A stretch of DNA of 64,000 nt from Candidatus Terrybacteria bacterium RIFCSPHIGHO2_01_FULL_43_35 (GTDB lineage Bacteria > Patescibacteriota > Minisyncoccia > Terrybacterales > GWB1-40-14): the NCBI GenBank assembly GCA_001822815.1, contig MHSR01000008.1, forward strand, positions 49,602 to 113,601, in the 5' to 3' direction. Positions 7,807 to 42,893 of the stretch are shown one piece after another. The notes beneath the pieces were generated by a model. It did no database searches, was not told the origin of the DNA, and saw only the letters and a list, made by a program, of their open reading frames with translations. Position numbers and translations under genes: made by a program. Every line of letters begins with the position of its first letter. The stretch's first letter is position 1.

Positions 7807-7925
7807 TGCTCTCTAGCTTAAACGCGGAGCTTTATGCCTCTACTGCAGAGACCGCGCCCCAGCGCTCGGCGCGTCTAAGGCGTCTAAGGGATCCGTGGGG
7901 CGAGCCTTGTCTCTAACGGGGTTGA

Positions 7926-8054
7926 CCCCGTTAGAAATTTACAGCAGTTATTTACTATTTATTGTAAGCTTTAGCCTTTGTAGCGTATGGCAATGGCGAG
8001 AAAAGGCAAAGGCCTTTTCTCATGGCTAAATATAGCCGTAAACTTCTAACGGGG
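7926..8054. repeat. MITE-like repeat, copy A (~129 bp) with ~19-bp terminal inverted repeats
   Basis: Left end 'ccccgttagaaatttacagcag', right end 'gccgtaaacttctaacgggg' (reverse-complement related). Near-identical to the copy at 13796..13923. Flanked on both sides by 'TTGAC'. Confidence 0.6.
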
Positions 8055-8082
8055 TTGACACATTCGTATTAAACATGATAAT
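8055..8082 (+). promoter_or_regulatory. Putative sigma70-like promoter formed at the right junction of the MITE (TTGACA-16-GATAAT) upstream of infA
   Basis: 'ttgaca' directly follows the repeat end; 'gataat' sits 16 nt downstream; infA ATG is at 8162. Confidence 0.35.
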
Positions 8083-13745: not shown

Positions 13746-13795
13746 CTATTAGTATAACCCGCCCAGCCTTAATTTTTAAATTAGAGCTGAGCTTG

Positions 13796-13923
13796 CCCCG
13801 TTAGAAATTTACAGCAGTTATTTCATATTTGTTGTAAATCTAGGCCTTTGTGGCATATGCAACAGTGAGAAAAGGCCGTTGCCTTTTCTCACGGCTAGAT
13901 ATCACCGTAAACTTCTAACGGGG
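13796..13923. repeat. MITE-like repeat, copy B (~128 bp), same family as 7926..8054
   Basis: Ends 'ccccgttagaaatttacagcag' and 'cgtaaacttctaacgggg'; the interior is near-identical to copy A with a few substitutions. Flanked by 'cttg' on both sides and by a 14-bp direct repeat 'gccttaatttttaa' at 13767 and 13965. Confidence 0.6.
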
Positions 13924-14002
13924 CTTGCTATATATGTATAATTGGGTTATTATTTTGTTGGCTGGCCTTAATTTTTAACTATTTTTAAGCGCCTCCAATT
14001 TC

Positions 14003-21219: not shown

Positions 21220-22377
21220 ATGGATATTTTTAATACTGCTACTCATATTTTTTACGTTGCCGCGGTTTTTATACCCGTGTTGGCTTTGCTTATATTTGTT
21301 CACGAATTCGGGCATTTTATTGTGGCAAAAAAATCCGGCGTCAAGGTCAACGAATTTGGTTTTGGTTTTCCGCCTCGCATTTGGGGCAAACGCGTCGGCG
21401 AAACTATTTATTCTATAAACCTTTTACCATTGGGCGGATTTGTGAATGTTGAGGGTGAAAACGGTGAAGACCTCGTTGAACAAGGACAAAATCAGGTTAG
21501 CCGCCGGGAAGGTATAAGAGATAATTTTGACCCTGCGCGCAGTTTTGTATCCAAACCACTGCATATAAAATTATCTATACTGTATGCCGGTGTACTTATG
21601 AACATATTTCTGGCCTTCGTTATTTTTTCTTTGCTTCAGGTTATAGGTGTGCCAACCGGCATATCAGATGAGGCCAACGATCCAAACGCCAAGGTATTAA
21701 TCAGTGATGTGGTAAAAGGTAGTCCGGCCTGGATTGCCGGCATCAAGACTAACGATTTGATCAAGGAGATGCGTATAGAAAATAATGTATTTTATCCGAA
21801 TAAACTTACTCAAACCCAGAAATTGATAAAAGATAATGCTGGACGGGAAATAACATTGGTTATCTTAAGAGGAAAGGAAATTAAGGAATTTAATATTATT
21901 CCACGTGTTAACCCCCCGCCAGGGGAAGGCGCTTTGGGCATAGGACTATTACTTGCCGGCAATATTTCTTATCCGTGGTATGAAGCTCCATGGCGCGGCG
22001 CTTGGATCACCGTGGCGACAACGATAACCATGATAAGCGGTGTGGCGCATCTTTTAGGTCAGCTTTTTTACGAGCATACTTTAAGCGGTGATGTGGCCGG
22101 TCCTATAGGCATAGCTAGTTTGACTTGGCAAATCAGCGCTTTGGGACTTTCGCATTTATTGTATTTTGTGGCTATAATTTCTTTGAACCTAGCCGTATTG
22201 AACGCCTTGCCATTACCGGCTCTAGACGGCGGAAGAGCTTTTATTTTGCTTATCGAAAAAATACGTCGCAAGAATTTTTCTTTAAGAACCATGCAATGGG
22301 TTAACGGCATTGTTTTTGCACTGCTCATCCTTTTTGTTCTGTTGGTATCTATACGTGATATAGAGCGAATGTTATGA
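21220..22377 (+). CDS. rseP: RIP metalloprotease RseP (site-2 protease, M50 family) with PDZ domain
   Basis: 'HEFGHFIVAK' HExxH in the first TM, PDZ-like middle segment, 'LNLLPLGG' and C-terminal 'NLAVLNALPLPALDGG'. Confidence 0.85.
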   Translation: MDIFNTATHIFYVAAVFIPVLALLIFVHEFGHFIVAKKSGVKVNEFGFGFPPRIWGKRVGETIYSINLLPLGGFVNVEGENGEDLVEQGQNQVSRREGIRDNFDPARSFVSKPLHIKLSILYAGVLMNIFLAFVIFSLLQVIGVPTGISDEANDPNAKVLISDVVKGSPAWIAGIKTNDLIKEMRIENNVFYPNKLTQTQKLIKDNAGREITLVILRGKEIKEFNIIPRVNPPPGEGALGIGLLLAGNISYPWYEAPWRGAWITVATTITMISGVAHLLGQLFYEHTLSGDVAGPIGIASLTWQISALGLSHLLYFVAIISLNLAVLNALPLPALDGGRAFILLIEKIRRKNFSLRTMQWVNGIVFALLILFVLLVSIRDIERML

Positions 22378-22507
22378 TCCAGTTAGAAGTCTTCGGCATA
22401 AAAATTTATTAAATTTTTATGCGTAGAATTAGCGGGGAATTGTAAAAATAAAAGTCCGCCAAGCCTTAATTGCCACGCAATTATTGTTAATACAGACTTC
22501 TAACGGG

Positions 22508-23770
22508 ATGAAACAAAGTTTATTTTTTGCAAAAACCAGGAAAGAGAGTCCAAAAGACGCCGTTGCGGCAAGCCACAAATTTTTATTGCGCGCAGATTAT
22601 ATAGATCAGCTTGCGGCTGGCATATACACTCTTTTGCCCTTAGGCCAAAAAGCACACCAGAAATTGTTGAAGATCATACGCGAAGAGATGGATGCCATAG
22701 GCGCGCAAGAGTTGCTTATGCCCGCATTGCATCCCAAAGCTATTTGGGAAAGTTCCGGTAGATGGGAAGTATATAAAGGTGAGATGTACCAGTTTCAGGA
22801 TAAATCTAAACATTGGTTTGGACTTGGTCCCACGCACGAAGAGATTATCACTGCCATAGTAGCCAGCCGCGTAAGTTCATTCCGCGATCTGCCCGTTGCT
22901 TTGTATCAGATACAAGGCAAATTTCGTGATGAAGCTAGGCCTAAGGCAGGGTTAATGCGGGGTAAGGAATTTATAATGAAGGATCTTTATAGTTTTCATG
23001 CCACCAAAGAGGATTTTGACGATTTTTATAATAAAGCCAGCGAGGCCTACCTGCGTATTTTTAAACGATGCGGCGTTGAAGCCTTTCCAGTATTGGCTTC
23101 TGGCGGAGCGTTTACCAAGGATATGACCAAAGAATTTATGATTAAGACTAAGGCGGGTGAAGATATAACTTTGATTTGCGAACATTGTGGTTGGGCGGCC
23201 AATAAGGAAATTTCGGCCAATGTCAGTAAGAATTGTCCGGTTTGTAAAGAAAAAGTTAGCGAGCATGTTACTCTCGAAGCGGGCCACATTTTCCATCTTG
23301 GCACGCGCTATTCGGAAAAATTAGGCGCTTTTTTTCTGGATGAAAACGGTAAGCGTCAGCCAATGATAATGGGCTGTTATGGCTTGGGGACCACGCGGCT
23401 TCTTGCGGCAATTGTTGAGGTCCATTACGACAAAAAAGGTATTATGTGGCCGGAAAGTATCGCGCCATTCGATATACATCTCCTGGCTTTAGGCAAGGAT
23501 AATAAGATAAAACAGGAAGCCGAAGCTATTGAAGGACATTTACAAAAAGAAGGAATCGGGGTATTGTATGACGACCGGGACATTTCGGCCGGAGAGAAGT
23601 TCGCTGATGCCGACTTGATCGGTATCCCTTTGAGAGTAGTAATAAGCGAAAAAACACTCGGTCAGGGCATGGTGGAGATAAAATATCGTAAAGAAGATGC
23701 GGCGCGTATGGTTACAAGAGGCGAATTGATTAATATTGCTAAAGCCGATTTAAACCGCGTAAATAATTAG
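22508..23770 (+). CDS. proS: Prolyl-tRNA synthetase, short form without the editing insertion
   Basis: Class-II motifs: 'AAGIYTLLPLGQKAHQKLLKIIREEMDAIGAQEL', 'FRDEARPKAGLMRGKEFIMKDLYSFH', and zinc-like 'CEHCGW...CPVCKE'. The ATG at 22508 gives 'MKQSLFF...'; listed ORF 22484 starts at an upstream TTG. Confidence 0.8.
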   Translation: MKQSLFFAKTRKESPKDAVAASHKFLLRADYIDQLAAGIYTLLPLGQKAHQKLLKIIREEMDAIGAQELLMPALHPKAIWESSGRWEVYKGEMYQFQDKSKHWFGLGPTHEEIITAIVASRVSSFRDLPVALYQIQGKFRDEARPKAGLMRGKEFIMKDLYSFHATKEDFDDFYNKASEAYLRIFKRCGVEAFPVLASGGAFTKDMTKEFMIKTKAGEDITLICEHCGWAANKEISANVSKNCPVCKEKVSEHVTLEAGHIFHLGTRYSEKLGAFFLDENGKRQPMIMGCYGLGTTRLLAAIVEVHYDKKGIMWPESIAPFDIHLLALGKDNKIKQEAEAIEGHLQKEGIGVLYDDRDISAGEKFADADLIGIPLRVVISEKTLGQGMVEIKYRKEDAARMVTRGELINIAKADLNRVNN

Positions 23771-23791
23771 AATCATTATTTTATATAATAT

Positions 23792-23936
23792 ATGCCAGGT
23801 AGTGAAAGTTCGACCGTTCTCCGAAGACGAACAACCGATTTCGTGATACTTGGCTCTACCATTAATTCGTTTAACATTAATCATTAACTAGAAATTCGGC
23901 AGCACATTATAAGTCGAACTTCTACTACCTGGTATG
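23792..23936 (+). promoter_or_regulatory. Structured ~145-nt element immediately upstream of, and overlapping, the mreB-paralog start codon (copy 1 of 2)
   Basis: 5' 'atgccaggtagtgaaag' pairs with 3' 'cttctactacctggtATG'. Inner stem is 'gttcgac/gtcgaac'. A related element lies at 25054..25217. Confidence 0.4.
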
Positions 23937-24989
23937 TTTGGTCTTATACCCAAAAATTTATTTGTTCAAGATATCGGTATAGATTTGGGAACGGCCAACA
24001 CGCTTGTTTATGTTCGCGGCAAAGGCATTCTTATTAATGAGCCTTCGGTAGTTGCCCTGAATAAGAAAACTAATCAGATTTTGGCTATAGGCAATGAAGC
24101 GCGCAAAATGGTTGGTCGCACGCCAGCCCATATTGTTGCTAGTCGTCCCTTAACCAAAGGCGTTATATCTGATTTTGAGATTACCGAACAGATGCTGGCG
24201 CATTTTTTTTCGAGCGTCCGTGAGCATGCTCGTTTTCCATTCAGCAGGCCGCGTGTAGTTATAGGCATTCCTTCAGGCGTGACCGAGGTTGAAAAGCGCG
24301 CGGTTGAAGATGCGTGCAAGAACGCCGGCGCAAAAGAAGTTTATCTTATTGAAGAACCAATGGCCGCGGCCATAGGTGCTCGTCTTCCAGTCCAGGAAGC
24401 TTCTGGAAGCATGATTGTTGATATAGGTGGAGGGACAACAGAAATCGCTGTGATTTCATTGGGCGGCATAGTGGCCTTTCGGTCTTTGCGTATAGCTGGT
24501 GATCGTTTGAATGATGATATCATCAATTTTGCGCATGAAGAAATGAAAATGGTTTTGGGCGAACGCACGGCCGAAGAAATAAAGATTGCCACGGGTTCCG
24601 CAAAAGAGGTCGATGATCCGATAATAAGCCCTATGCGTGGACGCGATGTTTTGACCGGCCTGCCTAAAGAAATAATGGTGAGCGACACGCATATCCGCCG
24701 AGCGATTTCGCATTCAGTTTACACCATCATAGAAGCGATCAAAGCCACTATTGAAGAAACGCCACCAGAACTTGTAGCGGATATCATGAATAGAGGTATC
24801 ACCCTGGCTGGTGGAGGTTCTCTCTTGCGCAATCTGGACAAGTTAATAGCCCAAGAAACGCTCATGCCGGTTCAGGTTACGGAAGATCCATTAACTGCCG
24901 TTGTTCGTGGGACGGGTATAGTACTTGAAAATATAGACGAGCTTCATGAGATTTTGGTTAGTGCCGACAACGCCGCAATACCGCTGTAA
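23934..24989 (+). CDS. mreB: Rod shape-determining protein MreB (paralog 2), first gene of a mreBCD-PBP2 cluster
   Basis: 'GIDLGTANTLVYV...EPSVVA...GRTPAHIVASRPL' MreB signatures; 351 aa. Confidence 0.85.
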   Translation: MFGLIPKNLFVQDIGIDLGTANTLVYVRGKGILINEPSVVALNKKTNQILAIGNEARKMVGRTPAHIVASRPLTKGVISDFEITEQMLAHFFSSVREHARFPFSRPRVVIGIPSGVTEVEKRAVEDACKNAGAKEVYLIEEPMAAAIGARLPVQEASGSMIVDIGGGTTEIAVISLGGIVAFRSLRIAGDRLNDDIINFAHEEMKMVLGERTAEEIKIATGSAKEVDDPIISPMRGRDVLTGLPKEIMVSDTHIRRAISHSVYTIIEAIKATIEETPPELVADIMNRGITLAGGGSLLRNLDKLIAQETLMPVQVTEDPLTAVVRGTGIVLENIDELHEILVSADNAAIPL

Positions 24990-25053
24990 TTTTATGCACG
25001 TTTTTTAAACCAGACTTGCGTTTTGTCGTGTCAATCCTTACTTCTAGTGTGGT

Positions 25054-25217
25054 ATGCCAGGTAGTGAAAACGCGACCATTCGTTTCCGTCAGCTGACGGA
25101 GACGAATAAAAACCATCTGGCCACAATCACCGTCAGTATTAAAATTCAATACGTAATACTTAAGAATAGCGCAATTTTTATCGAAATAATGTAGTCGCAT
25201 TTCTACTACCTGGTATG
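25054..25217 (+). promoter_or_regulatory. Structured ~164-nt element immediately upstream of, and overlapping, the mreC start codon (copy 2 of 2)
   Basis: 5' 'atgccaggtagtgaaaa' pairs with 3' 'tttctactacctggtATG'. Inner stem 'gcgac/gtcgc' is compensatory relative to copy 1. Flanked by 'ggtatg' direct repeats. Confidence 0.4.
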
Positions 25218-25958
25218 CGCAAAAAAAATAGTTTTACTTTAAAAAAATCCTATATTATTATTTGTGCCATAATCCTTTTGGCACTTTTTTACATACTGGG
25301 CGGGCGAGGTTTTATTATCGACAGTCTGAGCGCTATTTTAGGTCCCATGCTTTCACGAATTTCTTATTTGCCCACGCGTGATGATATCTTAGAAAAAGAA
25401 AATGTTAAATTACGTCAAGAAAACGCCATATTGTCTGAAAGAGTCATCGCGCAAGAGGCTTTGTTGAAAGATAAAAATATAGATATTAAATTTCCTGGCC
25501 CAAAGTTATTGACCAGGATTTTATGGTTTAATTTACTGCCGTCAAAACGTGTTGCTCATATAAATAGAGGTTCATCGCAAGGGGTATATTCTGATATGGT
25601 GGCGCTTGATCCGGGCGGCTCATTTTTAGGTAAGGTGATAAACGTCTTTAATGATTCTGCCGATATTTTGTTGCTTGGCGATAAGTCTTTAAGGATTAGC
25701 GTGCGCATAGGCGACACTATAGGCGCTCTTGAAGCCACAAGCGACAATAAGCTTATGGTTAATTTGGTTGGAAGTGATTCTAATATTGAGGTTGGTATGC
25801 CCGTTTACACGGCTGGCCAAGGAGATGCTCTGCCGCAAGGTATTGCTATAGGGCGTGTAAGTGAAGTCTCGCCATCCGGAGTCGAACCATTTTTAACCAT
25901 AAAGGTTAACGCATTTTCTGATGCCAGGGCACAAGAATACATTTTTTTGATCCCATGA
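25215..25958 (+). CDS. mreC: Rod shape-determining protein MreC
   Basis: N-terminal TM and a coiled coil ('ENVKLRQENAILSERVIAQEALLKDKN'), followed by an MreC beta-barrel-like domain; position is directly after mreB. Confidence 0.75.
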   Translation: MRKKNSFTLKKSYIIICAIILLALFYILGGRGFIIDSLSAILGPMLSRISYLPTRDDILEKENVKLRQENAILSERVIAQEALLKDKNIDIKFPGPKLLTRILWFNLLPSKRVAHINRGSSQGVYSDMVALDPGGSFLGKVINVFNDSADILLLGDKSLRISVRIGDTIGALEATSDNKLMVNLVGSDSNIEVGMPVYTAGQGDALPQGIAIGRVSEVSPSGVEPFLTIKVNAFSDARAQEYIFLIP

Positions 25959-42562: not shown

Positions 42563-42725
42563 AACACTCAAAATTTGGTGTCTAAGGCTGCGGGGTCGTC
42601 TAATGGGCTCGAGACAACCGCTTGTCTCGAGCGGGCATTTTAGCAATTTGTCCTCAAATTGCGTTAAGGAATGCCCGGGCAAGACAGAGACTTTGAAGTT
42701 ACATTTAAAAATTTATAGCCAGCGC

Positions 42726-42796
42726 TGCGGGATCGTCTAATGGTAGGACATGAGCCTTTGAAGCTCAGTATCTTGGTTCGAATCCAAGTCCCGCAG
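42726..42796 (+). tRNA. tRNA-Gln (anticodon UUG)
   Basis: Hand-folded cloverleaf. Acceptor 'tgcggga/tcccgca' with a U1:A72 pair, as in bacterial tRNA-Gln. D-stem 'gtct/ggac'. Anticodon stem 'tgagc/gctca' with loop 'ctTTGaa'. T-stem 'cttgg/ccaag' with loop 'ttcgaat'. Discriminator G; no encoded CCA. Confidence 0.8.
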
Positions 42797-42893
42797 CGCT
42801 GGCTATAAAATATATTATTAGTTTTCGGATCCAAGCCCCGCAGTCACTTACATTTTTTATCGACCAATTGAAGACGCGTAATCCGATTGCTAA

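Follow-up and report, generated by a model that had tools for sequence, protein, structure and literature searches.

Hairpin mobile elements inserted at start codons in Patescibacteria, and a candidate GIY-YIG nuclease for their movement

Two hairpin elements at the mreB2 and mreC start codons

Two cell-shape genes in the 64-kb window (the whole stretch of DNA analysed), the second mreB paralog (mreB2) and mreC, begin at the right-hand edge of short hairpin elements without an ORF. Each element is framed by a TATG target-site duplication (TSD), the right-hand copy of which contains the ATG of the downstream gene.

23791..23794, plus strand: left TSD (TATG) of element 1; the ATG within it duplicates the mreB2 start codon and is orphaned
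23795..23932, plus strand: body of element 1, an ORF-less hairpin element of 138 nt
23795..23814, plus strand: 5' arm of element 1, consisting of P1 CCAGGTAGTG, an unpaired A and P2 AAGTTCGAC
23816..23832, plus strand: small P3 hairpin of element 1 adjoining the 5' arm (predicted fold)
23913..23932, plus strand: 3' arm of element 1, consisting of P2' GTCGAACTT, an unpaired C and P1' TACTACCTGG
23933..23936, plus strand: right TSD (TATG) of element 1; ATG 23934-23936 is the start of mreB2 (ORF 23934-24989, MreB family)
25053..25056, plus strand: left TSD (TATG) of element 2
25057..25213, plus strand: body of element 2, an ORF-less hairpin element of 157 nt
25057..25076, plus strand: 5' arm of element 2, consisting of P1 CCAGGTAGTG, A and P2 AAACGCGAC
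25078..25107, plus strand: P3 hairpin of element 2, ATTCGTTTCCGTCAG/CTGACGGAGACGAAT, 14 bp
25194..25213, plus strand: 3' arm of element 2, consisting of GTCGCATTT, C and TACTACCTGG
25214..25217, plus strand: right TSD (TATG) of element 2; ATG 25215-25217 is the start of mreC (ORF 25215-25958)

The ends of the two elements are near-identical and reverse-complementary, with the ATG gene starts in their 3' strands, as a sequence-only reading of this DNA had described. That reading drew the elements at 23792..23936 and 25054..25217; both are present, but these intervals include the 4-nt flanks, without which the elements measure 138 and 157 nt. The elements have a 20-bp closing stem in common, and the difference in the inner stem between them is compensatory, as had been proposed, apart from one C-A mismatch in copy 2. 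Their interiors are unrelated except for a hairpin that directly follows the 5' arm in both; the one reported for copy 2 is present at 25078-25107 and is 14 bp long. The flanking direct repeats also held up, as TATG at both elements and GGTATGC at copy 2. Within the 64 kb, the exact 13-mer of the arm occurs at only 2 sites, namely elements 1 and 2, and its reverse complement, searched with 2 mismatches allowed, finds only the two 3' arms. RNA folding gave -45.0 kcal/mol for element 1 (z = -5.1) and -60.8 kcal/mol for element 2 (z = -6.8), and for each element 0 of 200 shuffles were as stable. An 80-aa minus-strand ORF annotated across element 2 is a spurious gene call.

Elements of a sister family also lie in the window:

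7926..8054, plus strand: sister-family copy (CCCCGTTAGAAATTTAC...GTAAACTTCTAACGGGG) with TTGA on both flanks
13796..13923, plus strand: sister-family copy with CTTG on both flanks, between divergent genes
22378..22508, plus strand: sister-family element (TCCAGTTAGAAGTCT...AGACTTCTAACGGGA) between the stop codon of an M50 peptidase gene (TGA 22375-77) and the ProRS gene

The first two are 83-84% identical to each other, and the right flank of the copy at 7926..8054 (TTGACA-N17-ATAATC) is promoter-like. The last base of the element at 22378..22508 is the A of the ProRS ATG (22508-10). We considered a likeness of the sister family to integron attC sites (GTTAGAA/TTCTAAC) and set it aside because the core sites stand in the reverse of the attC order.

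A multi-copy family with duplicated target sites

The arm pairs, for which a wider search had been suggested from the window sequence, recur in a large family. Exact two-arm scans matched at least 118 genome stretches and at least 120 metagenome stretches, and the 20-nt arms are common to more than 240 distinct copies located before unrelated housekeeping genes in Patescibacteria genomes and in groundwater and sediment metagenomes. Nearly all of the genome matches listed come from Parcubacteria, Microgenomates (Gottesmanbacteria) and Doudna-, Berkel- and Saccharibacteria-labelled MAGs. One genome, Parcubacteria GW2011_GWB1_40_14, contributes at least 17 loci and at least 20 copies among the matches listed, including one at a different gene (L087 2251-2394) that is 83% identical to element 1 over its full length. 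Copies are 120-160 bp long and have nearly palindromic ends, a conserved 10-bp CCAGGTAGTG / YTACTACCTGG. Next to these comes a 9-bp helix that is conserved in its pairing only. Tandem and nested copies occur. Viral contigs scanned for the family returned 0 matches, and a phage vehicle was rejected on that ground. One stretch with distant unpaired arms (L072), considered as a possible transposase-bearing form, proved to hold only separate, diverged copies. We found no prior description of the family in the literature. It is a multi-copy mobile element specific to the Patescibacteria (CPR).

The flanks of the copies record how they arrived. The genome scan used a pattern with a fixed T after CCTGG, which inflates both its sense bias (94:3) and the share of duplications that begin with T, and target sites were therefore counted in a metagenome scan free of this flank bias (no T after CCTGG; 128 copies). 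In most of these copies the same 4-mer stands on both flanks: TATG in 57 of 128, CATA in 10, AATG in 5, CCTC in 4, GATG in 3, and many others once each. Most copies have a 4-bp duplication and a few a 5-bp one, and the two flanks co-vary across more than 20 different 4-mers. Six pairs of filled and empty sites display the insertion itself, with a single (T)ATG at the empty site in four. In the pair L088/L212, whose flanks are 93.5% identical, the filled site reads ..ATCCCTATG|element|TATGCCAGACC and the empty site ..ATCCCTATGCCAGACC; the further pairs are L102/L026, L170/L240, L209/L026, L176/L113 and L017/L091. The ORF-less copies are thus short (under about 500 bp) and non-coding, and the family has shared terminal inverted repeats (TIRs), a fixed-length TSD and many unrelated loci, as expected of miniature inverted-repeat transposable elements (MITEs). 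The suggestion that a MITE insertion supplied the start codon through its target duplication is borne out by the hundreds of copies, the varied 4-bp duplications and the filled/empty pairs, and we regard the mobile identity and insertion geometry as nearly certain.

A single-stranded IS200/IS605-type element (PATE) that inserts 3' of TATG and carries the right-hand TATG itself would account for the strong preference for one tetranucleotide, the hairpin structure and the orientation bias. The flanks, in contrast, co-vary whatever their sequence (CATA, AATG, GATG, CCTC, CACA, TTTG, TCAA and others), so the right-hand copy is not element-borne, and one target copy remains at empty sites. Pairing also runs end to end, not in two separate subterminal hairpins, and no TnpA or TnpB gene is associated nearby. 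We consider such a mechanism scarcely credible.

The favoured target is NATG, for the most part TATG, at the start codon of a gene. In the 128 copies, 72 (about 56%) lie sense at a start codon and 18-19 (15%) antisense at one, about 10 (about 8%) fall within a Shine-Dalgarno GAGG, and a few occupy TTGA|TTGACA sites. The window contains 50 non-start intergenic TATG/CATA sites and 31 TATG start codons, counts that argue for something more than a 4-mer preference; the precision could reflect target choice or survivorship. The presence of start codons within the 3' stem strands of elements 1 and 2 follows from this geometry, because insertion duplicates NATG at the start codon.

The sequence-only reading had offered as an alternative a cis-regulatory leader RNA that sequesters the starts of the cell-shape transcription units (mreB, and mreC-mreD-PBP2). 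A signal or factor would have to melt it for translation. The start codons are indeed paired in strongly stable predicted folds, three consecutive genes in the window (ProRS, mreB2 and mreC) carry such stems, and in a Gottesmanbacteria genome a copy of an ORF-bearing form (see below) also sits at the start of mreB. The genes downstream of 84 copies nevertheless belong to 129 Pfam families, with no association or enrichment of any gene family. In a Yanofskybacteria genome, the gene for an MreB orthologue with 72% identity has no such element before it, against the conservation at mreB that a regulatory role had led one to look for, and presence of the element varies between related genomes. Ten contigs with an identical MreB come from strains about 100% identical and are uninformative for orthologous loci; an MreC homologue search (E <= 1e-10) returned only the self match. 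Since elements 1 and 2 have unrelated interiors, there is no common core that could bind a ligand or factor. An Rfam scan, another of the checks suggested, matched no family to the elements, small ribozymes and group I/II introns included: at gathering thresholds Rfam 15 reported one tRNA only in the whole window, and an E-value scan of 22350-25250 returned nothing relevant. Together these results make a dedicated regulatory leader very improbable.

A conserved closing stem and an ORF-bearing form

Pairing of the arms is conserved across the family. Covariation, which had been proposed as a test of the stem, is strong in P2: pairing reaches 98.0% in 242 distinct copies compared to 80.5% (maximum 81.8%) in 500 shuffles, and most positions use 3-4 Watson-Crick pair types. 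Position 3 of P1 changes from A-T to G-C in ORF-bearing copies, and compensatory changes are seen within one orthologous insertion common to three species. The closing stem is part of the minimum-energy fold in 126 of 128 copies, and the pairing of the start codon noted at mreB2 and mreC extends to the family, with its A or U paired in 74 of 80 predicted folds. With ends and P2 pairing both conserved, either DNA strand, or its transcript, would fold into a long closed hairpin. The interior is less uniform. Many copies have a GC-rich hairpin adjoining the 5' arm, at the position of P3, and no interior motif conserved family-wide was found; AGAAAUUCG, which first looked like a universal 'decoy' motif, is present in only 23 of 167 copies and is subfamily-specific. 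A consensus scan for promoters inside the element gave nothing above shuffle expectation.

A longer form of about 330 bp has an ORF for an 88-aa GIY-YIG nuclease between its arms. We found such copies at 11 independent loci with the same arms and the same duplications, at many unrelated insertion sites. Of these 11, 10 lie sense at the start of a gene, among them the mreB start in the Gottesmanbacteria genome. The ORF occupies the whole interval between the P2 strands at all 11 loci, always in one orientation, and ends with a stop codon embedded in the 3' strand of P2. The protein matches at least 256 clusters, the best 120 of them at 65-100% identity, and has the invariant catalytic residues Y4, Y6, Y16, R26, H30 and E50. 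It matches Pfam GIY-YIG (PF01541) at E 1e-16 to 1e-19 and TIGR01453 weakly. Its nearest solved relatives by sequence are the UPF0213 protein BH0048 and the Slx1 nuclease domain, and fold comparison agrees (model pLDDT 89.6; TM 0.62-0.67, rmsd 1.7-3.2 A). No GIY-YIG gene lies within the 64-kb window, and no remnant of the ORF is detectable in short copies (blastx E >= 0.005), so the arms, duplications and target sites are what link short copies to the ORF-bearing form.

The partner that has the same arms and duplications encodes a GIY-YIG nuclease and not a known transposase class. We hold it at a little better than even odds that this nuclease is the mobility enzyme and the version of about 330 bp the autonomous form. 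The nuclease would recognize the folded stem, whether hairpin or cruciform, and would cleave both its base and the target, leaving host repair or ligation to complete the move. Short ORF-less copies would be mobilized in trans. We know of no strand-transfer activity for the GIY-YIG domain. Known members leave 1-2-nt 3' overhangs, so cleavage alone leaves the 4-bp duplication unexplained.

Alternatively, these could be ordinary MITEs that a conventional transposase, with its gene elsewhere, moves in trans. The GIY-YIG ORF would then be a passenger or a secondary homing invader of the loop of some copies, much as homing-endonuclease genes invade group I introns. Several observations speak for this: DDE elements are marked by 4-bp duplications and terminal inverted repeats, GIY-YIG enzymes are known for homing and not for transposition, ORF-bearing copies are a small minority (about 6 of some 250 pattern matches), and other small GIY-YIG genes in the same genomes adjoin tRNA genes or sit between other inverted repeats. 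Yet 1.7 Mb of flanking DNA contained no transposase gene between or beside arms. A passenger ORF also fits poorly with the single orientation and embedded stop codon at 11 of 11 loci and with arm-linked proteins that form one tight clade (65-100% identity). Finally, P2 needs pairing and not sequence, which suits a structure-selective enzyme better than a TIR-binding transposase. We judge the conventional transposase unlikely, while taking it as a serious contender. That the ORF-bearing form represents a new class of prokaryotic transposon, with a bare 88-aa nuclease of the Slx1/UPF0213 branch as its sole protein driving ORF-less copies across the CPR, is a tentative proposal that we hold at somewhat short of an even chance. 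In this proposal the enzyme would cut the stem base and NATG targets, for instance leaving 4-nt cohesive ends for host ligase to seal, and the ORF-less copies would home in on start codons, Shine-Dalgarno sites and -35 boxes.

Proposed tolerance by the host and comparison with known systems

Insertion leaves the gene with an intact ATG that abuts the right end of the element, and the native leader retains a second ATG. Element lengths are spread evenly over the three residues modulo 3 (28/27/21). The ORF that opens at the left ATG runs for a median of 21 codons and stops inside the element at scattered positions. These properties rule out in-frame read-through or an N-terminal extension, so the gene is preserved by duplication of its start codon; the scattered stops also rule out a positioned termination-reinitiation upstream ORF. 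The element would be co-transcribed with the host operon, its stem closing and the insert looping out. Downstream translation might then proceed by two routes: ribosomes that initiate on the native leader, at its orphaned 5' ATG, could unwind the stem, or RNase III could cut it, and a stem of about 20 bp is predicted to fit an RNase III substrate. Copies with a TATGA duplication read ATG ACC AGG TAG, and together with the scattered stops they indicate that the upstream-ORF route is not universal. Survivors of selection would be only those insertions that regenerate a start codon, a Shine-Dalgarno sequence or a -35 box. For the explanation as a whole, a MITE-like family with start-codon geometry, a nuclease-encoding autonomous form and tolerance at the RNA level, we estimate a probability of about 75%.

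A reading that overlaps with this one is that the hairpin has been co-opted as an intercistronic module for RNA processing or stability, either an RNase III site or a protective 5' stem, with gene-start copies under positive selection. Compensatory changes preserve the stem of the insertion that three species have inherited, 73 of 80 copies still have the orphaned 5' ATG, and the GC hairpin adjoins the arm on the upstream side of the gene in 42 copies versus 13. The interior also keeps the orientation of the gene even where the arm asymmetry is reversed: homologous pairs match on the opposite strand in 8 of 9 comparisons of CATN- with NATG-flanked copies, versus the same strand in 54 of 55 NATG-NATG pairs. 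Correia elements cut by RNase III offer a precedent. Another comes from CPR rRNA genes, where RNase III-type intervening sequences have been proposed (PMC11270868). Against co-option, the same gene lacks the element in related genomes, no family-wide interior motif exists, and the role is inapplicable to copies at -35 boxes and antisense in Shine-Dalgarno sites. Co-option seems improbable to us, and it would be compatible with the preferred explanation.

Patescibacteria have tiny, dense genomes that are usually called poor in mobile DNA apart from rRNA introns, and a selfish element still reaches tens of copies per genome in them. Landing on start codons and regenerating them is an unusual fit to a genome with almost no spare DNA. 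Gene callers already put spurious ORFs across such elements. In hundreds of essential genes (including those for aminoacyl-tRNA synthetases, SecA, ribosomal proteins and MreB) the start codon is predicted to be buried in a stem of about -45 kcal/mol, and how initiation occurs at buried starts in organisms mostly lacking Shine-Dalgarno sequences can be put to the test. Should the 88-aa GIY-YIG protein prove to be the mobility enzyme, a nuclease class would be added to the short list of transposition chemistries, the uncharacterised UPF0213 family would gain a role, and the non-intron GIY-YIG insertions of CPR rRNA genes would be explained.

Among known systems, the Correia or NEMIS elements of Neisseria are MITEs of about 100-150 bp whose RNA hairpins are cut by RNase III, altering the fate of downstream mRNA. 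They and the present family have in common inverted repeats, many copies, a short target duplication, a gene-adjacent position and co-transcription. Correia elements differ in duplicating TA and not NATG, in their unrelated arms, in not being locked onto start codons and in belonging to another phylum; the arms (CCAGGTAGTG...) and NATG duplication of the present family do not match the 26-bp Correia TIR and TA. We know of no ORF-bearing relative of Correia elements. REPIN-RAYT systems likewise consist of short, non-autonomous hairpin repeats served by a small dedicated nuclease-type enzyme that recognises folded DNA, an arrangement that we propose for the present family. RAYT, however, is an HUH/Y1 enzyme present once per genome and flanked by REP sequences, and its repeats show neither target duplication nor start-codon targeting.

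For the 88-aa protein, Slx1 and UPF0213 (BH0048, EF2693) are the closest solved relatives in sequence and fold. Slx1 cuts branched DNA at stem bases and junctions, matching a hairpin or cruciform substrate, but it has the partner Slx4 and a RING domain, whereas the protein of the element is a bare catalytic domain of 88 aa. UPF0213 is without established function, and neither Slx1 nor UPF0213 is known to move DNA. Homing endonucleases of the GIY-YIG class, whether intron-borne or free-standing (I-TevI, Seg proteins), also place this catalytic domain in a selfish element that rides on host transcription, as co-transcription would here. They have a long DNA-binding domain, recognise one long site and move by recombination to the cognate allele with no duplication; the present family, in contrast, occupies many unrelated sites with a 4-bp duplication and encodes no DNA-binding domain. 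Rickettsia palindromic elements and mitochondrial hairpin or 'byp' elements are other cases of palindromic selfish DNA in compact genomes that spares the gene product, and they do so by in-frame read-through or bypass inside coding regions, whereas here the start codon is duplicated.

A parallel from the same clade of organisms is found in CPR rRNA genes. There, GIY-YIG ORFs occur in insertions that are not homing-like and belong neither to group I nor to group II introns, and short ORF-less insertions of <200 bp are proposed to be excised by RNase III (PMC11270868). These insertions were described without arms, duplications, start-codon targeting or copies at protein genes (PMC11270868). Both kinds of insertion may belong to the present family, landed in a different class of gene.

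Hairpin elements at the starts of ProRS, mreB2 and mreC

Re-reading of the DNA confirmed the description that the sequence-only reading had given of two long-stem elements, one before mreB2 and one before mreC:

23795-23932: element 1 body, flanked by TATG at 23791-94 and 23933-36
25057-25213: element 2 body, flanked by TATG at 25053-56 and 25214-17

Element 1 is ordered TATG, CCAGGTAGTG-A-AAGTTCGAC, interior, GTCGAACTT-C-TACTACCTGG, TATG, and element 2 TATG, CCAGGTAGTG-A-AAACGCGAC, interior, GTCGCATTT-C-TACTACCTGG, TATG. Their right-hand ATGs begin ORFs 23934-24989 (MreB family) and 25215-25958 (MreC), respectively. Folding gave -45.0 kcal/mol for element 1 (z -5.1 against shuffles) and -60.8 kcal/mol for element 2 (z -6.8). 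The two interiors do not align except at a hairpin 3' of the 5' arm, the 13-mer and its near-complement do not recur in the window beyond the two elements, and the proposed Rfam scan returned no match at either. The window is from a Rifle groundwater Patescibacterium, and its genes mostly lack a Shine-Dalgarno sequence and have AU-rich upstream regions, and T precedes 31 of the 65 start codons. Public gene calls place a spurious 80-aa ORF over element 2 (24958-25200, minus strand; fetched stretches L002-L010), indicating that such elements create false hypothetical proteins in annotations.

We also identified three long-stem elements of a sister family with the arms CCCGTTAGAA...TTCTAACGGG in the 64 kb:

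22378-22508: arms TCCAGTTAGAAGTCT...AGACTTCTAACGGGA; fills the gap from the M50 peptidase stop (TGA, 22375-77) to the ProRS gene
7926-8054: intergenic; TTGA flanks
13796-13923: between divergent genes; CTTG flanks

The start codon of ProRS is composed of the last A of the first of these elements and TG of the flank so that, together with elements 1 and 2, a hairpin element's 3' end adjoins the start of each of the consecutive genes ProRS, mreB2 and mreC. The same A+TG arrangement was found in 16 sister-family copies in the fetched loci, with TGAA, TTCA or CATA duplications. Identity between the other two window copies (regions 7910-8058 and 13792-13927) is 83-84%. After the copy at 7926-8054 comes a promoter-like TTGACA-N17-ATAATC, and before it lies a solo 3'-arm remnant, CTAACGGGG, at 7913-7921, which makes the copy look like an insertion into an older copy's flank.

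A mobile family that duplicates 4 bp at start codons

The search for further copies in relatives suggested by the sequence-only reading was productive. Scanning species-representative genomes with the exact two-arm pattern, which forced a T after CCTGG and thereby biased the flanks, yielded at least 118 stretches, three of them chance matches, and a second scan of metagenomes without the forced T yielded at least 128 distinct copies. Apart from the chance matches, nearly all first-scan matches listed are from Patescibacteria (Parcubacteria lineages, Gottesman-, Doudna- and Berkelbacteria, and Saccharibacteria-labelled MAGs), with GW2011_GWB1_40_14 alone supplying at least 17 loci; viral contigs scanned for the pattern gave none. 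The element also occurs in MAGs labelled 'uncultured Gammaproteobacteria' or 'Bdellovibrionales' (L026, L044, L048, L095, L126 [CAYHFH01] and similar TPA MAGs). These labels are probably wrong, as one such MAG is syntenic with the Patescibacteria MAG L102 at 77-83% identity; for a Gammaproteobacteria label, flank identity to a Patescibacteria MAG is 82%.

In the flank-unbiased metagenome scan, the 4 nt outside CCAGG...CCTGG are identical on both sides in most copies, whatever their sequence. TATG was duplicated in 57 of the 128 copies listed, CATA in 10, AATG in 5, CCTC in 4, GATG in 3 and CATG in 2, with single cases of CACA, GATA, AATA, TTTG, CAAA, TCAA, CGTG, GAGG, TTGA and TATA. Some copies have 5-bp duplications, such as TATGA, that keep an ATGA stop/start overlap, and tandem copies having one TATG in common, as well as nested copies, occur. 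Comparison of related genomes revealed six filled/empty site pairs, with a single 4-mer at the empty site in four. In the pair L088/L212, the filled site reads ..ATCCCTATG, element, TATGCCAGACC and the empty site ..ATCCCTATGCCAGACC, with flanks 93.5% identical; the remaining pairs are L102/L026, L170/L240, L209/L026, L176/L113 and L017/L091. The family consists of mobile elements with hairpin ends. They duplicate 4 bp and prefer NATG at start codons, where the duplication leaves the gene an ATG on the element's right edge. The varied duplications and filled/empty pairs thus bear out the earlier suggestion of a MITE whose duplication supplies the start codon.

The other earlier suggestion, a leader RNA dedicated to cell-shape genes, fails on gene context. 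For 84 copies, the ORFs beginning at the right-hand ATG matched 129 Pfam families, none of them more than three times, and downstream genes include aminoacyl-tRNA synthetases, SecA, S2, S20, TIM, enolase and RuBisCO. In a Yanofskybacteria genome, the leader of an MreB2 orthologue (72% identical) is ordinary and lacks the element, and element 1 is 83% identical over its full length to a GW2011_GWB1_40_14 copy before a different gene.

Among the metagenome-scan copies, 72 of 128 lie sense at a start codon, with the duplication spanning -1 to +3, and 18-19 lie antisense, by arm asymmetry, at a start codon of the other strand with CATA flanks. About 10 lie within GAGG of a Shine-Dalgarno sequence, with the Shine-Dalgarno, spacer and ATG all kept, and a few at TTGA-TTGACA. 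Some host genomes use GGAGG, and the element is found inside the Shine-Dalgarno sequence there too. NATG-flanked copies are nearly all at real starts, including those of short genes such as L36. As the window holds 50 non-start intergenic TATG/CATA sites versus 31 TATG start codons, a bare 4-mer preference combined with loss of intragenic insertions does not fully account for this precision; the remainder may reflect target choice or survivorship.

Within a genome, sibling copies repeat rare duplications (TGTA in MGJA01; TTGA in JAQUOF01 and in JACOXY01), and siblings at different loci have TGTA or TTGA in common (L078 and L090, L031 and L084, L069 and L075). Such common flanks would be unexpected if each insertion drew a fresh duplication, and hint that the flank travels with, or is specified by, the element. 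An insertion found in three species (L019, L085, L090, also L078) lies 2 nt deeper in the gene, reading ATGTA, element, TGTATAAAGAG; the final G of the element joins TG to give a new GTG start codon, so that the protein still begins M-Y-K-E.

Conserved stems and a GIY-YIG nuclease between the arms

The terminal helix P1 (positions 1-10) is conserved in sequence, though both DNA scans fixed most of it in the pattern, with position 10 partly constrained in the first and position 11 fixed on the 5' side only in the second. It always has a G-T pair at position 10 beside an A/C mismatch at position 11. At P1 position 3, A-T becomes G-C in copies found via their protein, which are free of DNA-pattern bias. 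The inner helix P2 (positions 12-20) is conserved in pairing and not in sequence, as the covariation check proposed earlier established: across 242 distinct copies it is 98.0% paired versus 80.5% (maximum 81.8%) in 500 column shuffles. Sliding the partner by one or two positions lowers pairing to 55% or 30%, and most positions show three to four Watson-Crick pair types. In the three-species insertion, at a gene starting MYKELI, P2 shows two compensatory double changes, and interior helices show further ones. Family-wide, the interiors have no conserved motif, and many copies have a GC-rich hairpin beside the arm upstream of the gene. That P1 keeps its sequence and P2 only its pairing is consistent with an enzyme recognizing the terminal sequence in the context of a folded stem.

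The sole arm asymmetry lies at positions 10-11 (GA left, AG right), and by this measure sense copies outnumber antisense about 4:1. The 'antisense' copies have interiors inverted relative to the arms. Homologous interiors are on opposite strands in 8 of 9 CATN-NATG pairs and on the same strand in 54 of 55 NATG-NATG pairs, and the GC hairpin is beside the gene-upstream arm in 42 copies and the downstream arm in 13, whatever the arm direction. The interior therefore tracks gene direction far more faithfully than the arms do, as in CATA-flanked L151, L165, L204 and L209, where, relative to NATG-flanked L176, L101 and L113, arm asymmetry is reversed and the interior gene-oriented. The arm mismatch dinucleotide flips independently of the interior (flip/flop), and strand-specific selection or a strand-specific mechanism must be at work.

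In copies of about 310-330 bp, the same arms enclose an ORF that starts 25-27 nt from the left end and stops at a TGA within the P2 3' strand (..GCCTGAAGTTC..). A search with the element protein matched at least 256 clusters. Across the best 120, identity is 65-100% and length 86-136 aa, mostly 86-103; these clusters come from Patescibacteria and bear the names 'GIY-YIG nuclease family protein' or 'putative endonuclease'. All six clusters checked for locus lie sense between element arms with a TATG/ATGA/ATG repeat at a gene start, one at mreB in a Gottesmanbacteria genome and another where two glycosyltransferase genes overlap at ATGA. The protein consists of a GIY-YIG domain and nothing more (PF01541, E 1e-16 to 1e-19) with invariant Y4, Y6, Y16, R26, H30 and E50. 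The solved structures closest to it, by sequence and by fold, are those of the UPF0213 proteins BH0048 and EF2693 and of the nuclease domain of Slx1 (model pLDDT 89.6; versus Slx1, TM 0.62-0.67, rmsd 1.7-3.2 A, 27-30% identity), and no I-TevI or UvrC chains were among the 50 fold-search matches listed. Two ORF-bearing copies are decayed (L100, L184), and no ORF remnant was detectable in short copies.

Other small GIY-YIG genes (L042, L054, L062, L111, L014), 35-48% identical to the element protein, adjoin tRNA genes and are flanked by duplicated tRNA 5' parts or unrelated inverted repeats, e.g. CCCCGCCCTCTA/TAGAGGGCGGGG; their sequence context suggests further mobile GIY-YIG cassettes with other ends. 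Within the window, a perfect 21-bp stem (42712-42732/42789-42809) extends the acceptor stem of tRNA-Gln(UUG) at 42726-42797. This tRNA is flanked by a seeming 5' part, GGCTGCGGGGTCGTCTAATGG (42586-42606), and a seeming 3' part, ..TTCGGATCCAAGCCCCGCAGTC (~42823-42845), of a second tRNA-like gene (region 42586-42846), for which ARAGORN made no call.

A proposed mechanism and known systems

We propose as a hypothesis that the GIY-YIG nuclease is the mobility enzyme of the family. Its substrates would be the target and the folded stem, at the base of which both flanks meet, and host functions would perform the joining. A cut leaving 4-nt cohesive ends at donor and target would explain the 4-bp duplication and precise empty sites, the rare flanks recurring in siblings, and the fixed orientation relative to a non-palindromic target. 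We know of no GIY-YIG enzyme that cuts in this way, and cohesive-end cutting is for that reason put forward as hypothetical.

The stem is predicted to close in the transcript: minimum-energy folds contain it in 126 of 128 copies, and they pair the start codon in 74 of 80. Expression would then go on by one of two routes. Of 80 copies, 73 keep the orphaned left ATG, which is still on the native leader and, in one empty/filled pair, lies behind the native Shine-Dalgarno sequence; ribosomes that begin at this ATG could open the arms. In the other route, RNase III might cleave the stem, as happens in Correia elements. Cleavage by RNase III has been proposed for intervening sequences in CPR rRNA genes (PMC11270868).

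Our literature search, whose incomplete coverage makes earlier work possible, found no description of the element family. The nearest report concerns CPR rRNA genes, in which it describes non-intron insertions with GIY-YIG ORFs that 'seem outside the context of homing', as well as short ORF-less insertions (PMC11270868). The window elements are MITE-like palindromic elements, and their autonomous form is possibly a categorically new, nuclease-only transposon.
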